From: a virus
Taxonomy: Duplodnaviria; Heunggongvirae; Uroviricota; Caudoviricetes
Direction: 5' to 3' (one strand)
Length of the DNA stretch: 4,739 nt
Virus record (IMG/VR): IMGVR_UViG_2778261686_000005
The notes beneath the pieces were generated by a model, which saw nothing but the letters and a program-made list of their open reading frames with translations, was not told the origin of the DNA and did no database searches. This document shows positions 1-4,739 of the stretch, piece by piece (position 1 is the stretch's first letter; the number at the start of each line of letters is the position of its first letter). A program made the position numbers and the translations under genes.

Positions 1-897
1 ATGCTTCCATCGGAAACGATGATCTGGCAGCCTGAGTTCACAGATAAAACACTCTCCAGGAAACCCGGGGCGGTTCACCTCCATGCTGATCCAAATAGTT
101 ACTTTAGTGTTCAAGAGAAGCAGCAAGGGCAGAGCATTGCACAGCAGAACGCAGATACATCTGCATATAATGCTCAGGTTAATGCGGAACAGGGTAATCG
201 GCGTCTCGATATGGAGCAGTTCAAAGTCCTATCCGATAACCAACTACGCACGAGAGAAATGGTTCTGAAAGCACGACTTGGACGTGCTCAAAATGACATC
301 GAGAGAGACAAGCTCAATGCTGAACTGAGCAAGGTACAGCAGGCGAAAGTGGAGAAGATGAACGATAAAATTAATACTGTTACAGGTAACATCGACTCCT
401 TGAACTCTGCGCTTGAAGTGGGTCATGAACTGGCGGGAATTGTAGGGAAACATCCTTCGGCCGTTACCCGCTCGCAGAACTATAACCCCCTGACGCTGGG
501 GTTTGGATTCCTTCCTGATGTAGCAGAAGACACACGAAGCCTACGCGCCAAAGCTGATGAATACAACCTAAAGGTTATTCTGCCTAGCCTCAAAGGGACT
601 TTTGGCTCTAACCCAACCGAAGGGGAAAGGGCTGCCCTTATGCAATCTCAAAATGGCATTAAGTCAGCAACCAGCAATGAGGCATTTTTGCGAGAGTTGA
701 ATAAAGCGCAGGACGTAATTATTCGAATGCAGAAACGACAGATTGCCGGGCTCGGTATTCCTGTAACCAAATCAAAGGACGAAGAAACTGATACCAAAAT
801 GCTGTTGCAGGATCCTTCACTGGTTAAGGATTATGTGACCGCACATGGCTATCTGCCGGAAAGTTACTATCAGGCAAAACTTAAGGGATGGCAATGA
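1..897 (+). CDS. Phage internal virion / ejection (DNA-transfer) protein, C-terminal portion; probably 5'-truncated by the window edge
   Basis: The frame is open from base 1 to TGA at 895-897 (298 codons) with coding-like composition. It contains a charged helical, coiled-coil-like stretch (LKARLGRAQNDIERDKLNAELSKVQQAKVEKMNDKINTVTGNIDSL). Its stop overlaps the start of the next gene. The ATG at 1-3 is probably internal, with the true start upstream of the window. The product is inferred only from its position immediately upstream of the SLT-domain protein (the gp15/gp20-like position in podovirus ejection-protein operons); I see no catalytic motif. Confidence 0.7.
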   Translation: MLPSETMIWQPEFTDKTLSRKPGAVHLHADPNSYFSVQEKQQGQSIAQQNADTSAYNAQVNAEQGNRRLDMEQFKVLSDNQLRTREMVLKARLGRAQNDIERDKLNAELSKVQQAKVEKMNDKINTVTGNIDSLNSALEVGHELAGIVGKHPSAVTRSQNYNPLTLGFGFLPDVAEDTRSLRAKADEYNLKVILPSLKGTFGSNPTEGERAALMQSQNGIKSATSNEAFLRELNKAQDVIIRMQKRQIAGLGIPVTKSKDEETDTKMLLQDPSLVKDYVTAHGYLPESYYQAKLKGWQ

Positions 898-3614
898 TGG
901 CACAACTGACAGAAAAACAGAAAGCCTATTCCCGTCATCTCGATGAAAAATATGGTTTCCCATCAGGGACGATGGAAACATTAGTTGGCAATGAATCTAG
1001 TGGTAACGGAAGTGCCGAGTCACCGAAAGGAGCTAGAGGATTTGCTCAACTGATGCCCTCAGTAATGAGTGATGCTGGTTATCGTGGAACTGATCCGCGC
1101 TCACTGCCATTTGAAAAGCAAATGGATATCGCAGCAAACCATCTCAATAAAGGAATGAAGCGATTTGGTGATATAGGTATGGCATTGGCTGGGTATAATT
1201 CTGGCTATGCTCGTATTAATGCCGTCAGAAACGGTAAATCTACACTGCCAGATGAAACGGCTAATTACGTAAGTAAATTTGCAGATGCCGGAATAATCCC
1301 TGATGACAGTGAAATCTTGCAGTTTGCACAAACCAGTCAACATCGCAATCTTCAGCAGCCTGACTACTCGGAGCTGGATAAAGAAATCTCTCAGGTGGGA
1401 GATATTTCTGCATGGGAAGCAAAACGTCAGCAATTTAAGAACATAGAAGCAGGACTACCAACAGCCAGTTCATGGGAGCAGAAAAGAGCTCAGTTTCTCG
1501 CCGATGAAAATGCCGGGGAACCGCAGCAGCAAGTAGCCAAGTCTAACCTTAATCCTGAGATGGAATATCTTTCGCCAGGACTGAAAGCTGCGCCAGAGCA
1601 GATGGCCAGAGGGATTGCTAATATACCGTTTGATGTAATGGACGCAGGCGTGGGGGTAGTCAATGCGGCGCAATCAGCCGGAGCATGGGCAGCTCAGAAG
1701 CTTGGTGTGGGTGATGGCACATACACGCCCATATCACCTGTCTTTCGCCCAGTAGACCAACCTACAGATCCATACGCGCAGGCTGGTGAGCAGCTAGCAC
1801 CTTACCTTATTACAGGATTAGGCGCAGGAAAGGCAGCTACCGCAGCTTCTTCAGTTGCCAACGCTCCACGTGCTGAACGTGCGGCCACAAAGGTGGCTAG
1901 TATGTTGGCAGAAAACCTGCCAGGTACATTGGTGAACGCCCAAAAGAACGGGCAGATCAGCCCAGAAGACCTAGCAAAAGAGACAGGTATTGGCCTAGCA
2001 GGATCGCTAGGAGCACGCGCTTTAATAAAGAGCGGACAGACAGCCAGTGACGTAATGCGAGATGTATTGCGGAGTAATACAAATCAATCAGGCCATGTGT
2101 TAGGGGCAGCAAATACTCTGGAAACCGCCAATGATGTATCGAAAGCAGCGCGTTCTGCCGTAGGCCGAGAGCATATCGCATCGCAGGCATCAAACGTCAG
2201 AGATGATGTCGCTAAGGCGGCGAAAATCACTGGTATTAATATCAACACCCTGACGCCTGGAATGCGCTCAGGTAGTCGTGGAATTGCCCAAGCAGAAGGT
2301 GTTCTGGCATCAACTCCTGGGAATGTTCAGGATGCTCACCTTACGGCCTTCAATGAAATATCCTCAAAGTTGAATAAGCAGTTGTCTGATTTCGGTGCTG
2401 AGTCTGGAAGCGCATCAGAAAAAAGCGCAGCAATTAAAGAGCGCATCATCGCGAGCCTCAGTGATATGAAAACAGCAGAGAATATGGCATGGGCAGAACT
2501 GCGAAGCACGATGCCACGCGAAAGGATGAAAATGAGTAATGGGATGGCTGTCGTCCAAGCAGAAAAAGCAGCCAATGTTCCACTCAGCCCGGAGATGAAA
2601 CAGTTTCAGGCTGCCAACAACCAAGGTGGCGGCATAACCTTCGACGGGATGAAGGCATGGCGTGCTAAGTTTGCTGATGCTGAACAAGCAAACACCCGGG
2701 CAGGTAAGGCCAATGCCGCCCGGATTGCCGGAGAAATGCGCAGAGCTATCACTGATGACATGCGCATCATGGCTGAAAAAGGAAACTTCCTCACAGAATG
2801 GCAGAAAGCTAACGATCTCTCTAAAAGTTACATTATCGCCAAACAAAATGCCGAATCTGTTTTTGGTCGAGATCTCGCATCAGACGCTATGGTAAGAAAA
2901 GGTGCCGATACGCTTAAGGCATCCGCAAATACTGGAACGGGAGCTTTTCACCGCCTTATCTCCGCGCTGCCGGAAGCAGAACGCCAACCAGCAATAGCAT
3001 CTATTCTTCAGCATGCTGTGGCGCAGGGAGAGAAGGGAGGAATCGGTGAAGAGTCTGGTATCCAGTATTTTGCCAAGCTCATGACCCAGCAGAATGTAAA
3101 CGCCATCAGTCGTCATGCGCCAGATCTCGGTAGAATGATGAAAGAGTTCGGTGTACTCGCTAAAGCCAGCACCAGACCGCAGCGATACGTAGAGCGCACG
3201 GGAAGAACAACTGAGGCTCTCAAAACGCTCGATTCAGGCCTTCCAAAGATCGTCGGTGTGATTATGAACGGAGTTCAACAGTCAGGTGCGATCGCTGGAG
3301 GCTTTGGCGGTGGTGTAATTGGTTCGATTAGTGGTTTGGTTGCTGGTGGCGCACTGAGAAATACTGTGGCTAAGATTGGGGCGACAAGAAGTGGTCGATA
3401 TGCGATAGAGAAAGCCGTTCAGGAAGCTACAAAAGCAGTGCGCGCAGGGGCATCACCAGCAGCGATCGCCGCAGCAGAGAAACGATTTTCGGCCAATAAA
3501 ATTGCCATGAAAGCAATTCGTGATGCCGTTGGGGCTGAAGAATTCGTGAAACTGACAAGGGCCGGGATTGTAGCTACCCTCAGTGGCATGAAAGATGTTA
3601 GCGAATGGGAATAG
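888..3614 (+). CDS. Phage internal virion / DNA-injection protein with N-terminal lytic transglycosylase (SLT) domain
   Basis: 908-codon ORF ending at TAG 3612-3614. The N-terminus carries a family-1 lytic transglycosylase signature: a Glu-Ser pair (E36-S37, nt 993-998) in VGNESSGNGSAESPKGARGFAQLMPS, followed by ALAGYNSGYARI (the A-Y-N-x-G motif, Y103-N104 at nt 1194-1199). The body is Ala/Gln/Glu-rich and probably helical. Gly-rich hydrophobic segments occur mid-protein (PYLITGLGAGKAATAAS, GIGLAGSLGARALI) and near the C-terminus. Start is ambiguous: the SD-like AAGGG at 883-887 abuts ATG 888 but is well spaced for ATG 894 or 897, so the true start is more likely 894 or 897. Confidence 0.88.
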   Translation: MAMMAQLTEKQKAYSRHLDEKYGFPSGTMETLVGNESSGNGSAESPKGARGFAQLMPSVMSDAGYRGTDPRSLPFEKQMDIAANHLNKGMKRFGDIGMALAGYNSGYARINAVRNGKSTLPDETANYVSKFADAGIIPDDSEILQFAQTSQHRNLQQPDYSELDKEISQVGDISAWEAKRQQFKNIEAGLPTASSWEQKRAQFLADENAGEPQQQVAKSNLNPEMEYLSPGLKAAPEQMARGIANIPFDVMDAGVGVVNAAQSAGAWAAQKLGVGDGTYTPISPVFRPVDQPTDPYAQAGEQLAPYLITGLGAGKAATAASSVANAPRAERAATKVASMLAENLPGTLVNAQKNGQISPEDLAKETGIGLAGSLGARALIKSGQTASDVMRDVLRSNTNQSGHVLGAANTLETANDVSKAARSAVGREHIASQASNVRDDVAKAAKITGININTLTPGMRSGSRGIAQAEGVLASTPGNVQDAHLTAFNEISSKLNKQLSDFGAESGSASEKSAAIKERIIASLSDMKTAENMAWAELRSTMPRERMKMSNGMAVVQAEKAANVPLSPEMKQFQAANNQGGGITFDGMKAWRAKFADAEQANTRAGKANAARIAGEMRRAITDDMRIMAEKGNFLTEWQKANDLSKSYIIAKQNAESVFGRDLASDAMVRKGADTLKASANTGTGAFHRLISALPEAERQPAIASILQHAVAQGEKGGIGEESGIQYFAKLMTQQNVNAISRHAPDLGRMMKEFGVLAKASTRPQRYVERTGRTTEALKTLDSGLPKIVGVIMNGVQQSGAIAGGFGGGVIGSISGLVAGGALRNTVAKIGATRSGRYAIEKAVQEATKAVRAGASPAAIAAAEKRFSANKIAMKAIRDAVGAEEFVKLTRAGIVATLSGMKDVSEWE
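960..1262 (+). other. Lytic transglycosylase (SLT, family 1-like) catalytic domain within the 888..3614 CDS (approximate boundaries)
   Basis: Motif order E-S ... G-A-x-G-F-A-Q-L-M ... A-G-Y-N-S-G matches the conserved order of family-1 LT motifs (catalytic Glu-Ser, a G-L-M-Q-like block, A-Y-N-x-G). Boundaries were estimated by eye, not from an alignment. Confidence 0.7.
3249..3356 (+). other. Glycine-zipper-like hydrophobic segment (putative membrane-insertion region) near the C-terminus of the SLT-domain protein
   Basis: Residues ~788-823 read IVGVIMNGVQQSGAIAGGFGGGVIGSISGLVAGGAL. This is a long uncharged stretch with repeated small-x-x-x-small spacing, typical of membrane-inserting or channel-forming helices. 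Confidence 0.5.
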
Positions 3615-3764
3615 ACGCTCTAACTAACAAAACCATAATAGCCAAGGACGGCATACTGATATTGAGCCAACTATAAAAATTCCATATCACATTACGAGCC
3701 TGTGGCTTACATTCGCTTACAGTGATGATAATTTATAACCACGCAATTCTTAGGTGAGATTGTC
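3615..3764 (+). promoter_or_regulatory. AT-rich intergenic region with putative promoter and ribosome-binding site for the lipoprotein gene
   Basis: 150-bp non-coding spacer, visibly AT-richer than the flanking structural gene. A strong SD AGGTGA at 3752-3757 sits 7 nt before ATG 3765. Candidate -10-like hexamers are GATAAT (3727-3732), TATAAC (3734-3739) and TATAAA (3672-3677); a weak -35-like TTGAGC (3662-3667) lies 17 nt before TATCAC (3685-3690). I could not find a -35/-10 pair with a convincing consensus match, so the promoter position is uncertain. Confidence 0.3.
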
Positions 3765-3815
3765 ATGATTAAAAATCTTCTTTTAATATTATCCCTGTCA
3801 TTATTGGCTGGATGC
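3765..3815 (+). other. Type II (lipoprotein) signal peptide with lipobox LAGC
   Basis: Lys3 supplies the positive n-region, followed by a hydrophobic h-region (LLLILSLSLL) and the lipobox L14-A15-G16-C17. Confidence 0.8.
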
Positions 3816-4463
3816 GTACAAAAACCGTTAGTAACGGTCAATGCTTTATCCTCCGGGCAATCTGTCGGTAAGAAGTTCTTGATCATCCCCGCAAGCCAAG
3901 AACTTTGGAACACCAAACAGATTGAATACACTCAAATAGCTACGGTAGTAGCCGCCAGTTTATCAAGCCAAGGATATATACAAGTTAAAGATGAAAAATT
4001 GGCTGACCAGGTAATTCTCTTGAACTTTTTGAGAAGCGGGGCCATTTCAAATACTCGTAATGTAACCATCCCAATATACGGGCAAACTGGTGTGAGCTCA
4101 GCAACAACGTACGGAAACTCGAACACCACGTTCAATAGTTATGGTGGTGGCTACGGTACAGCTAATACCACTGGAACGGCAACAACAGTTTATACGCCTA
4201 CTTATGGAATTACTGGCGCGTATAACACAACTGTGACGGACACGTTCTACGGCGCAGGGGTGATACTCCAGTCGTTTGATGCCAAGGCTTATCTCAATAA
4301 TAGGCAGATTAATATGTTATGGAAAGTTGGTAGCTCAGTCGTCTCGCAACAGTCTGATGGAATTGCTGATTACAAAGGGTTGGCGAGAATAGCCGCTAGC
4401 TATGCCGGGAAAAATACAGAAGGTGATATAACTTTTAATGTTGACCCTAAAGCACCAAATTAA
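3765..4463 (+). CDS. Lipoprotein of unknown function (probably outer-membrane), phage accessory/moron gene; candidate superinfection-exclusion or defence factor
   Basis: 232-codon ORF with a good SD. The N-terminus MIKNLLLILSLSLLAGC is a signal peptide ending in a lipobox (L-A-G-C, Cys17 at nt 3813-3815). Residue +2 of the mature protein is Val, not Asp, which under E. coli Lol sorting rules predicts outer-membrane localisation. The gene has lower GC and AT-rich codon choice (ATA, TTA, AAA) compared with the upstream genes. A GC-rich hairpin follows the stop. I do not recognise a characterised family. Confidence 0.85.
   Translation: MIKNLLLILSLSLLAGCVQKPLVTVNALSSGQSVGKKFLIIPASQELWNTKQIEYTQIATVVAASLSSQGYIQVKDEKLADQVILLNFLRSGAISNTRNVTIPIYGQTGVSSATTYGNSNTTFNSYGGGYGTANTTGTATTVYTPTYGITGAYNTTVTDTFYGAGVILQSFDAKAYLNNRQINMLWKVGSSVVSQQSDGIADYKGLARIAASYAGKNTEGDITFNVDPKAPN
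4077..4259 (+). repeat. Low-complexity Thr/Gly/Tyr/Asn/Ser-rich segment inside the lipoprotein CDS (protein-level quasi-repeats, not a DNA tandem repeat)
   Basis: Residues ~105-165 read YGQTGVSSATTYGNSNTTFNSYGGGYGTANTTGTATTVYTPTYGITGAYNTTVTDTFYGAG. By manual count roughly 30% are Thr, with recurring T-x-Y-G / Y-G-x-T units and no charged residues except one Asp. The flanking sequence has ordinary composition. Confidence 0.6.
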
Positions 4464-4470
4464 CTAATAA

Positions 4471-4486
4471 GCCCGGTACGCCGGGC
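4471..4486 (+). terminator. GC-rich hairpin 8 nt downstream of the lipoprotein stop; possible intrinsic terminator
   Basis: GCCCGG-TACG-CCGGGC forms a perfect 6-bp all-G:C stem with a 4-nt loop. The sequence after it (ATTCATGCCCCTATTATTC) is T-containing but not a clean U-tract, so it may act as a weak terminator or an RNA-stability element. Confidence 0.35.
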
Positions 4487-4739
4487 ATTCATGCCCCTAT
4501 TATTCATGAATCGCTTTTTCTGGAAGGTATGCGACAAACGTTAAGTGACATTGCCTACACATTCGGGGCGGGATTTCAAATCCGCTCCCAGTTGATGGGG
4601 CCGTTACAGTACGCGCATATCCGCTTTATGTGAAACAGGAAGATTTTTCTGATATCACTGCCTGGATTTGCCCCTATATTTCCAGACACCTGTTATCACT
4701 TAACCCATTACTGGCCTGCTGCCGCAGATATTCCCGTGG

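Follow-up and report, generated by a model that had tools for sequence, protein, structure and literature searches.

A predicted, strongly conserved beta-hairpin in a lipoprotein with a TraT-like core, encoded beside phage DNA-ejection genes

Ring-forming and exclusion lipoproteins as points of comparison

Several envelope proteins share a core fold and differ in what they build from it. PelC assembles into rings of 12 subunits. CsgG rings have nine, and each CsgG subunit adds to the core two short amphipathic beta-hairpins, from which a barrel is built; LptE, with the same core, is the monomeric plug of LptD. TraT (PDB 9e2v, 9fs5), the mobile-element-borne surface-exclusion and complement-resistance lipoprotein of F-like plasmids, combines an LptE-like core with a long beta-hairpin; in the decamer this hairpin and those of adjacent subunits make up one continuous sheet (PMC12658005, PMC11733297), neighbouring hairpins being bonded to one another in the decameric ring (PMC12658005). 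Homologues of TraT are found on the chromosomes of many phyla, and plasmids have co-opted the protein more than once (PMC11733297). A further point of reference is the DUF4136 domain, which has no known function (PMC5192318) and of which one member, BT2437, has been solved (PDB 4f54).

A second point of comparison is exclusion. According to the accounts in PMC10883804 and PMC11493245, small lipoproteins encoded by mobile elements (Llp, Cor, Ltp, Sfx) commonly act in exclusion, and SieA of phage P22 is described in the former as blocking the gp16/gp20 ejection conduit. None of these proteins (T5 Llp, phi80/N15 Cor, TP-J34 Ltp, IncC Sfx and SieA) shares sequence with the lipoprotein described here.

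The window analysed, a 4,739-nt stretch of viral DNA (IMG/VR record IMGVR_UViG_2778261686_000005), carries the gene of this lipoprotein near its 3' end, with the following features:

3752–3757, + strand: Shine-Dalgarno-like AGGTGA, 7 nt 5' of the ATG, a putative site read from the sequence
3765–4463 (stop codon included), + strand: gene for a 232-aa outer-membrane-type lipoprotein, a divergent DUF4136-like member (open reading frame list, homologues, AF2)
3765–3815, + strand: lipoprotein signal peptide, aa 1–17, with lipobox L-A-G-C and putative acylated Cys17 at 3813–3815 (sequence)
4008–4280, + strand: two long beta-strands, aa 82–126 and 130–172, with their inner ends in the core sheet and the remainder forming the protruding hairpin (DSSP, both AF2 models)
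4071–4115, + strand: conserved block 1, ascending arm, aa 103–117, P-x-[YWF]-G-Q-T-G-V-S-S-x-T-x-G, with invariant G106 and G109 (two alignments)
4077–4259, + strand: Thr/Gly/Tyr/Asn/Ser-rich, nearly charge-free segment, aa 105–165, part of the protruding hairpin (composition)
4116–4181, + strand: length-variable distal tip, aa 118–139, with the turn G127-G128-G129 at 4143–4151 (AF2 loop 127–129, midpoint test)
4182–4226, + strand: conserved block 2, descending arm, aa 140–154, T-T-x-Y-x-P-T-Y-G-[IV]-T-G, with invariant G148 and G151 (alignments)
4471–4496, no strand assigned: GC-rich inverted repeats just 3' of the stop codon, terminator-like on both strands (consensus scan)

The lipoprotein call made earlier for this gene is sound. 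The signal sequence MIKNLLLILSLSLLAGC, with Cys17 in its lipobox, fits the pattern [LVI][ASTVI][GAS]C of signal peptidase II substrates, a lipobox lies within the first 70 residues of 147 of 184 relatives, and Cys17 is nearly invariant in alignments of the family. In Lol sorting, an Asp at position +2 is the inner-membrane retention signal; because the +2 residue here is Val rather than Asp, the protein is predicted to be sorted via Lol to the outer membrane. The GC content of the gene is below that of its neighbours. Upstream of it the consensus scan gave no promoter signal above chance, and the terminator-like sites are weak evidence, since their count does not exceed shuffled expectation. 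An identical protein occurs on 189 contigs, where it is named only 'hypothetical protein' or 'Lipoprotein'.

In the AF2 model the core of this protein matches the folds of PelC, TraT, DUF4136 (BT2437), CsgG and LptE; the globular core is TraT-like or LptE-like, and the same as that of BT2437. By sequence, neither family profile matched the PDB even at E = 10, and PelC, CsgG and LptE show no similarity to the window protein. Against DUF4136 (PF13590) it scores 11.6 bits (E = 0.39), below the gathering threshold of 32.8 bits, which two distant relatives exceed (P0034 at 57.3 bits, P0032 at 33.9 bits). The window protein has no match to the TraT Pfam family (PF05818), for which the relative P0126 reaches 24.8 bits (E = 2e-5; cut-off 31). 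Sequence homology to TraT was considered and rejected, as the hhalign probability of 78% obtained with the signal peptide fell to 7% without it, the high figure having come from the signal peptides. Nor does the window protein match the CsgG profile (PF03783) or have two transmembrane hairpins per subunit. PHROGs, NCBIfam and PADLOC yielded no match to the lipoprotein and the BFVD viral fold library nothing significant; tblastn against 50,697 isolated phage genomes and the PLSDB plasmids was likewise without a match, these BLAST searches resting on the flanking domains because the low-complexity filter masks the segment.

What sets the window protein apart from its fold relatives is the hairpin. 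PelC has no long hairpin at all, and CsgG has two short amphipathic ones where the window protein has a single long one. TraT has its own long hairpin, but this is a shorter (about 26 residues), poorly conserved element nearer the C-terminus; at the site of the window protein's hairpin, after the third core strand, TraT has instead two to three membrane helices, and such amphipathic membrane helices are absent from our AF2 model. Our literature search turned up no paper with the motif strings, and no published account of a long GQTG...YGITG hairpin with the four invariant glycines.

Composition, predicted structure and conservation of the hairpin

The segment (4077–4259, + strand, in frame with the open reading frame 3765–4463 on the same strand) encodes aa 105–165, YGQTGVSSATTYGNSNTTFNSYGGGYGTANTTGTATTVYTPTYGITGAYNTTVTDTFYGAG. 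Thr, Gly, Tyr, Asn and Ser make up 47 of its 61 residues (77%) as opposed to 30% of the remaining protein (binomial tail 8e-14), and not one of 20,000 whole-protein shuffles placed 47 such residues in a 61-residue window (mean maximum 32, largest 42). Its sole charged residue is D159, whereas 16% of residues elsewhere in the protein are charged, and the longest charge-free run in the lipoprotein spans aa 99–158. Six Tyr-Gly dipeptides occur in aa 103–165 against 1.5 expected (shuffle p = 3e-4). The original prediction had described an almost uncharged stretch dominated by these five residues, with recurring T-x-Y-G-like units, splitting a protein of ordinary composition, and all of this is real, down to the flanking sequences it quoted; the hairpin is an insertion in an alpha/beta domain. 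It had also seen no perfect repeat or slippage-prone tract in the DNA, and Tandem Repeats Finder (score at least 30) indeed found no tandem repeat in the gene. That result, together with a uniform length of 232 aa among all full-length E. coli cluster members, rules out a slippage-prone contingency repeat. An Amelotin Pfam match of the protein (E = 0.054) was set aside as a compositional artefact.

The hairpin appeared in both of two independent AF2 runs, one from 139 sequences (pLDDT 94.6) and one from 31 (pLDDT 85). DSSP assigns strands at aa 82–126 and 130–172 that protrude from the alpha/beta core, and the strands are continuous, with no helix between aa 82 and 172 in the model. An intrinsically disordered low-complexity linker is ruled out by a pLDDT of 79–97 over the segment (94–97 at the base, 79–90 at the tip) and by a conservation that is the highest in the protein. 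As modelled, then, the segment is beta-rich, as had been supposed, and is the exposed part (about aa 100–157) of one very long two-stranded beta-hairpin between the third and fourth core strands. We consider it very probable that this is a conserved structural hairpin. A surface-exposed position and a part in interactions, both raised in the original prediction, may still apply to it.

A sequence-only test points to the same hairpin. Among 130 distinct hairpin sequences of 33–49 residues (G106-to-G151 distance 32–48), only the tip varies in length, and in every length class a Y-G-[G/N] turn falls at the exact midpoint, the geometric midpoint being G in 73%, followed by G or N in 84%; insertions and deletions are therefore balanced between the arms. 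The register i+j=257 pairs block 1 with block 2 (G106:G151, G109:G148) and also R98 with D159. One face of the hairpin carries Tyr, Val and Ile plus Thr, and the other Thr, Ser and Gly. In such an arrangement the four invariant glycines would face each other beside conserved aromatics ([YWF]-G-Q-T-G-V on the way up, Y-G-[IV]-T-G on the way down), with the tip closed by the Y-G-[G/N] turn and able to change length only by equal amounts on both arms.

Homologues numbered 37 in a word-seeded search and 3,846 cluster representatives (50% identity clusters) in a profile search, and come from many diderm phyla, including Akkermansia and Leptospira. In an alignment of 139 of them (20–90% identity) the only invariant columns of the protein are G106, G109, G148 and G151, all inside the segment, as are nine of the 14 nearly invariant columns. 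Among distant homologues, mean column identity is 0.85–0.91 in the two motif blocks (0.85 in block 1) against 0.37–0.39 in the flanking domains, and 0.40 in the distal tip (aa 118–139). Within E. coli, a single substitution out of 13 falls inside the segment. Because neighbouring hairpin residues are conserved in succession, both faces of the hairpin are constrained. Judged from the alignments, the segment is the signature of this lipoprotein family and its best-conserved part, so that an apparent low-complexity oddity becomes a defined structural motif marking a large uncharacterised family.

Genomic setting

Upstream of the lipoprotein gene the window holds phage DNA-ejection genes, and both of its ends lie in insertion sequences:

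1–76, no strand assigned: end of an IS629 copy (95–100% matches to annotated IS629 ends in many Stx phages; breakpoint in the alignment)
77–897, + strand: 3' part of a P22 gp20-type ejection-protein gene, cut by the insertion sequence (alignment to the intact gene in E. coli 214-4)
888–3614, + strand: P22 gp16-type DNA-ejection protein with an N-terminal SLT lytic transglycosylase domain, the upstream neighbour (Pfam SLT, E = 1e-12; PHROG 770 'DNA transfer protein', E = 2e-120)
4663–4739, no strand assigned: end of an IS2 copy (matches to sequence annotated InsD / IS2 OrfB)

In E. coli 214-4 the intact counterpart of the gp20-type gene carries the annotation 'phage DNA ejection protein'. The lipoprotein gene also occurs on a satellite-like island in E. 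coli, and the island-carrying genomes diverge from the window at the IS2 junction (4663); our literature search found no paper describing a satellite that carries P22-type ejection genes. Further carriers are a P4-like island and an island with an integrase and a reverse transcriptase. In a Serratia P22-like prophage the order is gp14, gp7, gp20, gp16, lipoprotein, arc (on the opposite strand) and tailspike, while in a second podovirus type internal virion proteins are followed by the lipoprotein and the tailspike. In two prophages the lipoprotein gene overlaps or abuts the last virion gene, which suggests late rather than lysogenic expression there.

Beyond these elements the picture is different. 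Across 44 genomes of diverse phyla the neighbours of the gene are heterogeneous and include chromosomal genes such as those for fumarase and Hsp33, and no conserved operon partner emerged from an all-against-all BLAST of 614 neighbouring open reading frames at 59 loci or from a Pfam scan of 142 neighbours. Since the neighbours are heterogeneous and no partner gene is conserved, the ancestral role of the protein was probably not phage-related. Taken as a whole, this is a family of stand-alone lipoproteins in the envelope of diderm bacteria, and the clade found here is mobile-element cargo. Chromosomal homologues in many phyla combined with co-option by mobile elements are a trait that the family has in common with TraT (for TraT, PMC11733297).

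On the P22 map, sieA lies directly downstream of gene 16, in the slot of the lipoprotein gene. [quoted passage not shown]

Possible roles of the hairpin

In the reading that we favour, at even odds (roughly 0.5), the segment is a conserved hairpin through which a TraT-like outer-membrane lipoprotein, possibly serving exclusion, assembles into rings. Each protomer would pair the edges of its hairpin with those of the protomers beside it, closing a continuous ring or barrel much as TraT does with its hairpin in the decamer and as CsgG and the beta-pore-forming toxins do with their stems, and the product would be a ring-shaped lipoprotein complex at the outer membrane. The clade has been acquired by temperate podoviruses and the satellite-like island, directly 3' of DNA-ejection genes, and, judging from position and analogy, the phage-borne copy would act as an envelope-level exclusion or receptor-masking factor. 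Parts of this reading have against them the missing sequence homology to TraT and the missing TraT helices, hairpin faces that are not clearly lipid-like, the empty phage, plasmid and defence searches, the heterogeneous neighbours, the lack of a promoter signal and the likely late expression in two prophages. This last role is proposed because the gene directly follows the DNA-ejection genes, in the position of P22 sieA. As to the separate parts, we rate homo-oligomerization through the hairpin at slightly under an even chance, and an exclusion or anti-phage role, which leans on analogy, as a tentative suggestion with the odds clearly against it. Bolder still, and more doubtful, is the idea of a phage-world counterpart of TraT: an unrecognised class of ring-forming lipoproteins, their invariant Gly/Thr/Tyr hairpins joined in a barrel-like collar, that temperate podoviruses and an ejection-protein-carrying satellite would use to block genome ejection or receptor use by rivals at the outer membrane, the same ring serving some envelope function in the chromosomal ancestors across diderm phyla.

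If the ring is real, it would be a new solution within the LptE/PelC/CsgG/TraT theme, with a beta-hairpin at the site of TraT's helices. If exclusion holds, P22-like and related podoviruses would gain their first described outer-membrane exclusion factor, a complement to the inner-membrane SieA and a handle on how ejection proteins cross the outer membrane.

Among the alternatives, one that we think unlikely is that the hairpin works as a monomeric probe, binding a host outer-membrane or periplasmic partner (a porin, OmpA, BAM or Lpt) by strand pairing or channel plugging, and masking a receptor without a ring, as T5 Llp does with FhuA. Conservation of both faces and of the edge residues would suit such a probe, as would the gene's place in the exclusion slot of podovirus prophages; moreover, interference by TraT with phage K3, which is specific for OmpA, has been reported (PMC11493245, citing Riede and Eschbach 1986), and the secondary receptor of the P22-like phage Sf6 is OmpA or OmpC (bioRxiv 10.1101/509141). 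The motif is, however, invariant from Enterobacteria to Planctomycetes, Leptospira and Akkermansia, which share few specific outer-membrane proteins beyond BAM and Lpt. A lone hairpin of two strands, each arm some 25 residues long, would also be unlikely to hold its fold unaided, and the closest folds, PelC, TraT and CsgG, all form rings.

We give a similarly low probability to a structural hairpin with no part in phage exclusion, the protein being a general envelope factor (serum or complement resistance, envelope stability, biofilm) carried as a moron that raises fitness, like lambda Bor, or else the gene being a passenger. Were neither ring nor exclusion to hold, it would be an ordinary conserved envelope lipoprotein, carried as cargo. 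The chromosomal contexts of the broad family, which lack a mobile-element signal, fit this account, as do the absence of matches in the defence databases, the complement resistance conferred by TraT (so named in its PDB and Pfam entries) and a Burkholderia DUF4136 gene that lies in a biofilm-regulating two-component operon (PMC5192318). Against it, two or more podovirus lineages that are unrelated to each other have the gene placed between ejection-protein genes and tailspike, and the gene is carried by P4-like and reverse-transcriptase-bearing islands, sites that, in our own generalisation, often hold exclusion or defence genes; P4-like satellites have defence hotspots (PMC13586616).

Less probable again is a membrane-spanning beta-barrel, in which the hairpins would form an outer-membrane secretion or diffusion pore like that of CsgG or the toxin stems. 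With the hairpin alone as query, Foldseek returned pore-state protomers of lysenin, epsilon toxin, aerolysin, CDTb and anthrax PA, although these matches are weak and local (TM-scores just 0.11–0.17). In these proteins long hairpins of this kind contribute to an oligomeric barrel, so that the matches also count for the favoured assembly reading. The stems of lysenin, aerolysin, epsilon toxin and anthrax PA are, like the window protein's hairpin, very long and two-stranded, and those of aerolysin-type toxins are also Ser/Thr-rich, a composition shared with it; yet the toxin core is unrelated, and the window protein lacks an amphipathic membrane-spanning tip. Gly, Tyr and Thr are typical of outer-membrane barrels, and one face of the base half presents I104, V110, Y116, Y143, Y147, I149 and Y153. 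On the other hand, there is no alternating hydrophobic belt, the consensus at most outward positions being Thr, Ser or Asn, and because neither face is clearly lipid-like a membrane-spanning barrel is not supported. CsgG, moreover, uses a pair of hairpins in each subunit and gave no match through its Pfam family, and an open pore of 16–24 strands would be costly to a lysogen.

Least probable by a wide margin is the flexible, surface-exposed, hypervariable or antigenically variable loop or stalk of the original prediction, which the low-complexity, uncharged composition and the differing tip length of distant homologues would fit, but which runs against a segment that is confidently predicted as structured, forms a protruding hairpin rather than the buried core of a known fold, has no DNA repeat, shows no length variation and almost no substitution in E. 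coli, and is the best-conserved region of the family, so that of the proposed hypervariability only the distal tip length stands while both motif blocks are invariant among homologues.

Composition and conservation of the lipoprotein segment

The segment at 4077-4259 is in frame with the ORF of a lipoprotein, of which it encodes aa 105-165, and this ORF follows a gp16-type ejection gene after a gap of 150 nt. The features of the window are:

1-76, IS629 end
77-897, 3' part of a P22 gp20-type ejection gene, cut by the IS629 end
888-3614, gp16-type ejection protein, SLT lytic transglycosylase domain at its N-terminus (Pfam SLT E = 1e-12; PHROG 770 E = 2e-120)
3765-4463, + strand, ORF of the 232-aa lipoprotein
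4663-4739, IS2 end (InsD/OrfB)

The lipoprotein N-terminus, MIKNLLLILSLSLLAGC, is a lipoprotein signal peptide with the lipobox cysteine at Cys17. Within the segment, T, G, Y, N and S account for 77% of the 61 residues versus 30% in the remaining protein, an enrichment matched by none of 20,000 whole-protein shuffles (binomial tail 8e-14). Its sole charged residue, D159, ends a charge-free run (aa 99-158), and Tyr is followed by Gly at six of the eight tyrosines versus 1.5 pairs expected (p = 3e-4). The original prediction of an almost uncharged stretch with recurring Tyr-Gly units is thus borne out; it was also right that the DNA is not a perfect tandem repeat, as none was detected in the gene.

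The same prediction had read the segment as possibly hypervariable. A word-seeded search recovered 37 relatives, with identities as low as 20%, of which the distant ones carry Pfam DUF4136, and the columns invariant in their alignment (P103, G106, Q107, T108, G109, G117, G127, T141, P145, T146, Y147, G148, T150, G151) all lie within or adjoin the segment.

Mean column identity among homologues of < 50% identity
Region: mean column identity
Block 1, ascending arm, aa 103-117: 0.85
Block 2, descending arm, aa 140-151: 0.91
Tip, aa 118-139: 0.40
N-terminal domain: 0.39
C-terminal domain: 0.37

Searching 1.84 billion representatives with a profile brought up 3,846 family members at E < 1e-3 (660 of these at < 1e-30); in an alignment of 139 of these members, G106, G109, G148 and G151 were the only invariant columns in the whole protein, and of the 14 columns that were nearly invariant, nine likewise fell inside the segment. 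Within E. coli, 189 contigs encode the exact protein, and of 13 substitutions T135I alone lies in the segment. The two motif blocks, the four glycines and the E. coli substitutions argue against hypervariability, and invariance across homologues, the outcome named as contrary to that reading, was found in both blocks when checked. As judged from the alignments, the family is conserved above all in this segment, which is no variable spacer. Length variability held across homologues, in which the tip differs in length (32-48 residues from G106 to G151), and did not hold in the E. coli cluster, where all full-length members have 232 aa.

Several homologues depart from this architecture at their ends. 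P0123, P0126, P0157 and P0143 are fused to additional C-terminal regions (including an Lcl_C domain in P0123), and P0002, P0003, P0004 and P0010 (267-272 aa; Kluyvera and other Enterobacteriaceae) have an annotated extension of ~40 residues ahead of the signal peptide, which is probably a mis-called start codon.

A predicted hairpin on a TraT-like core

AlphaFold2 with 31 sequences modelled an alpha/beta core plus a single, very long hairpin (pLDDT 85), and with 139 sequences the same picture (pLDDT 94.6, pTM 0.79), with strands 82-126 and 130-172 and a turn at G127-G129. The earlier description as 'beta-rich or flexible' therefore survives in its first half; flexibility does not fit a pLDDT of 94-97 at the base and 79-90 near the tip. 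We also compared 130 distinct hairpin segments by sequence only. The commonest G106-G151 distance was 36, the window protein (45) being near the long end, and a turn motif sat at the exact midpoint in all length classes (Gly at position -1 in 73%, Gly or Asn at position 0 in 84%). An insertion or deletion in one arm is thus always matched in the other, as a hairpin requires and a loop or linker does not, and this test supports the AlphaFold2 hairpin independently. Together, models and alignments show the segment to be a conserved, length-tunable beta-hairpin, inserted in the models into a DUF4136/LptE/TraT-like lipoprotein core.

The turn position sets a pairing register of i+j=257, which places G106 opposite G151, G109 opposite G148 and the charged D159 opposite R98, and aligns Y-G-Q-T-G-V with Y-G-I-T-G-A in approximate two-fold symmetry. 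One face carries I104, V110, Y116, Y143, Y147, I149 and Y153 amid Thr and Asn, the other Thr, Ser and Gly; both must be constrained, because consecutive residues are conserved.

Fold comparison scored highest with PelC (10.4-10.7), followed by the TraT decamer (9e2v, 9.3), DUF4136 BT2437 (4f54, 9.0), CsgG (8.7), an LPHT-ring flagellar basal-body protein (8z5n, 7.5), LptE (6.9-7.5) and TolB (5.9-6.9), and Foldseek with the better model gave probabilities of 0.94-1.0 to PelC, DUF4136, TraT and LptE. The predicted fold places the lipoprotein among ring-forming outer-membrane lipoproteins. TraT is described as combining an LptE-like core with membrane helices and a long hairpin, and in the decamer this hairpin continues into one sheet with the adjacent subunits (PMC12658005, PMC11733297). 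TraT's membrane helices and the family's hairpin share the same insertion point in the core (hhalign stretch from helix 1 to strand 3). At the sequence level, homology to TraT is not secured: hhalign gave a probability of 78% with signal peptides and 7% without; one family member, P0126 (394 aa), has a sub-threshold Pfam TraT match beside its DUF4136 match. The lipoprotein is a divergent DUF4136 superfamily member whose signature hairpin is previously undescribed, and we found no paper containing the motif.

A two-stranded hairpin with arms of ~25 residues, conserved glycines and both faces conserved is unlikely to exist by itself. If TraT, CsgG and pore-forming toxins are a guide, hairpins of neighbouring subunits would most likely pair and so close a ring (a probability of roughly 0.45), and the aromatic-Gly pairs would permit the tight strand packing and curvature needed in such a sheet. 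Through the hairpin, Foldseek reached pore-state protomers of lysenin, epsilon toxin, aerolysin, CDTb, iota toxin and anthrax PA, in which long hairpins of this kind are parts of the oligomeric barrel; these matches are weak (TM-score 0.11-0.17) and serve only as an analogy. One rival is a hairpin that acts as a monomer and binds a host outer-membrane protein. Another, a true membrane pore, is disfavoured, as neither face of the hairpin bears a classical hydrophobic, lipid-facing belt.

Genomic settings and possible role

Members of the broad family come from Proteobacteria, Nitrospirae, Verrucomicrobia (including Akkermansia), Planctomycetes, Leptospira, Bacteroidota, Chlamydiae, Campylobacterota and further groups, where the gene stands alone and no neighbour is conserved (the 142 neighbours contain 147 Pfam families, each at most three times). 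The window's clade is mobile-element cargo, and the lipoprotein had no match among isolated phages, plasmids, PHROG or PADLOC. Its gene has a lower GC content (0.40-0.45) than the ejection genes (about 0.50).

A Serratia P22-like prophage has the order coat ... gp14, gp7, gp20, gp16(SLT), lipoprotein, arc (opposite strand), tailspike, and the lipoprotein's slot there is that of P22 sieA, directly downstream of gene 16. In a second podovirus prophage type it lies between large internal virion proteins (PHROG 342, 684, 992) and the tailspike. Here (L006 9001, L014 6001) its start overlaps the preceding stop or follows it by 11 nt; because the gene overlaps or abuts the last internal-virion-protein gene, late co-transcription is suggested, and expression timing may differ between elements, given the 150-nt gap in the window.

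A ~19-kb integrative element holds the gene in E. coli 214-4, CV839-06 and NGF1, with an extension in locus L067. It sits between yicC and dinD in 214-4, CV839-06 has the same dinD end, and the right-hand neighbourhood differs in NGF1. Its cargo comprises an integrase, antA/antB, ash, a TOPRIM-DUF927 primase, PerC and four P22-type ejection genes (gp14, gp7, gp20, gp16); capsid, portal, terminase and tail/tailspike genes are absent. It looks like a phage satellite bringing its own ejection proteins, of which we found no description in the literature.

The gene recurs after ejection genes, and exclusion lipoproteins of mobile elements are known, including Sfx, Llp, Cor and Ltp; on these grounds an envelope-level exclusion or receptor-masking role suggests itself, as a rather doubtful reading. 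TraT, one such lipoprotein, is also reported to hinder phage K3, which uses OmpA (PMC11493245). A rival is a general fitness function, e.g. serum resistance. The structural assignment is solid; the functional reading draws on context and analogy.

With an IS629 end on one side and an IS2 end on the other, the 4.6-kb segment is flanked by two different insertion sequences, a bracketing seen in IS-rich Shigella or EHEC-like genomes. E. coli genomes with the intact island part from the window exactly at 4663, and since the IS629 end truncates the gp20-type gene, the ATG at position 1 is a chimeric start. The SLT domain spans aa 17-119 of the gp16-type protein, and the Serratia prophage has the same SLT + Phage_P22_gp16 fusion. 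Right after the lipoprotein stop codon, at 4471-4496, two overlapping GC-rich inverted repeats resemble a bidirectional terminator, in a scan whose total was not above chance.

More distant relatives lie in one P4-like island and in Vibrio, where the V. fluvialis homologue (L003 6536-8708) directly follows an RVT_1 reverse transcriptase and an integrase. On viral contigs L019 and L020, homologues lie near ORFs read as putative Dam-like methyltransferases. The settings of L003 and L018-L020 are defence-island-like.
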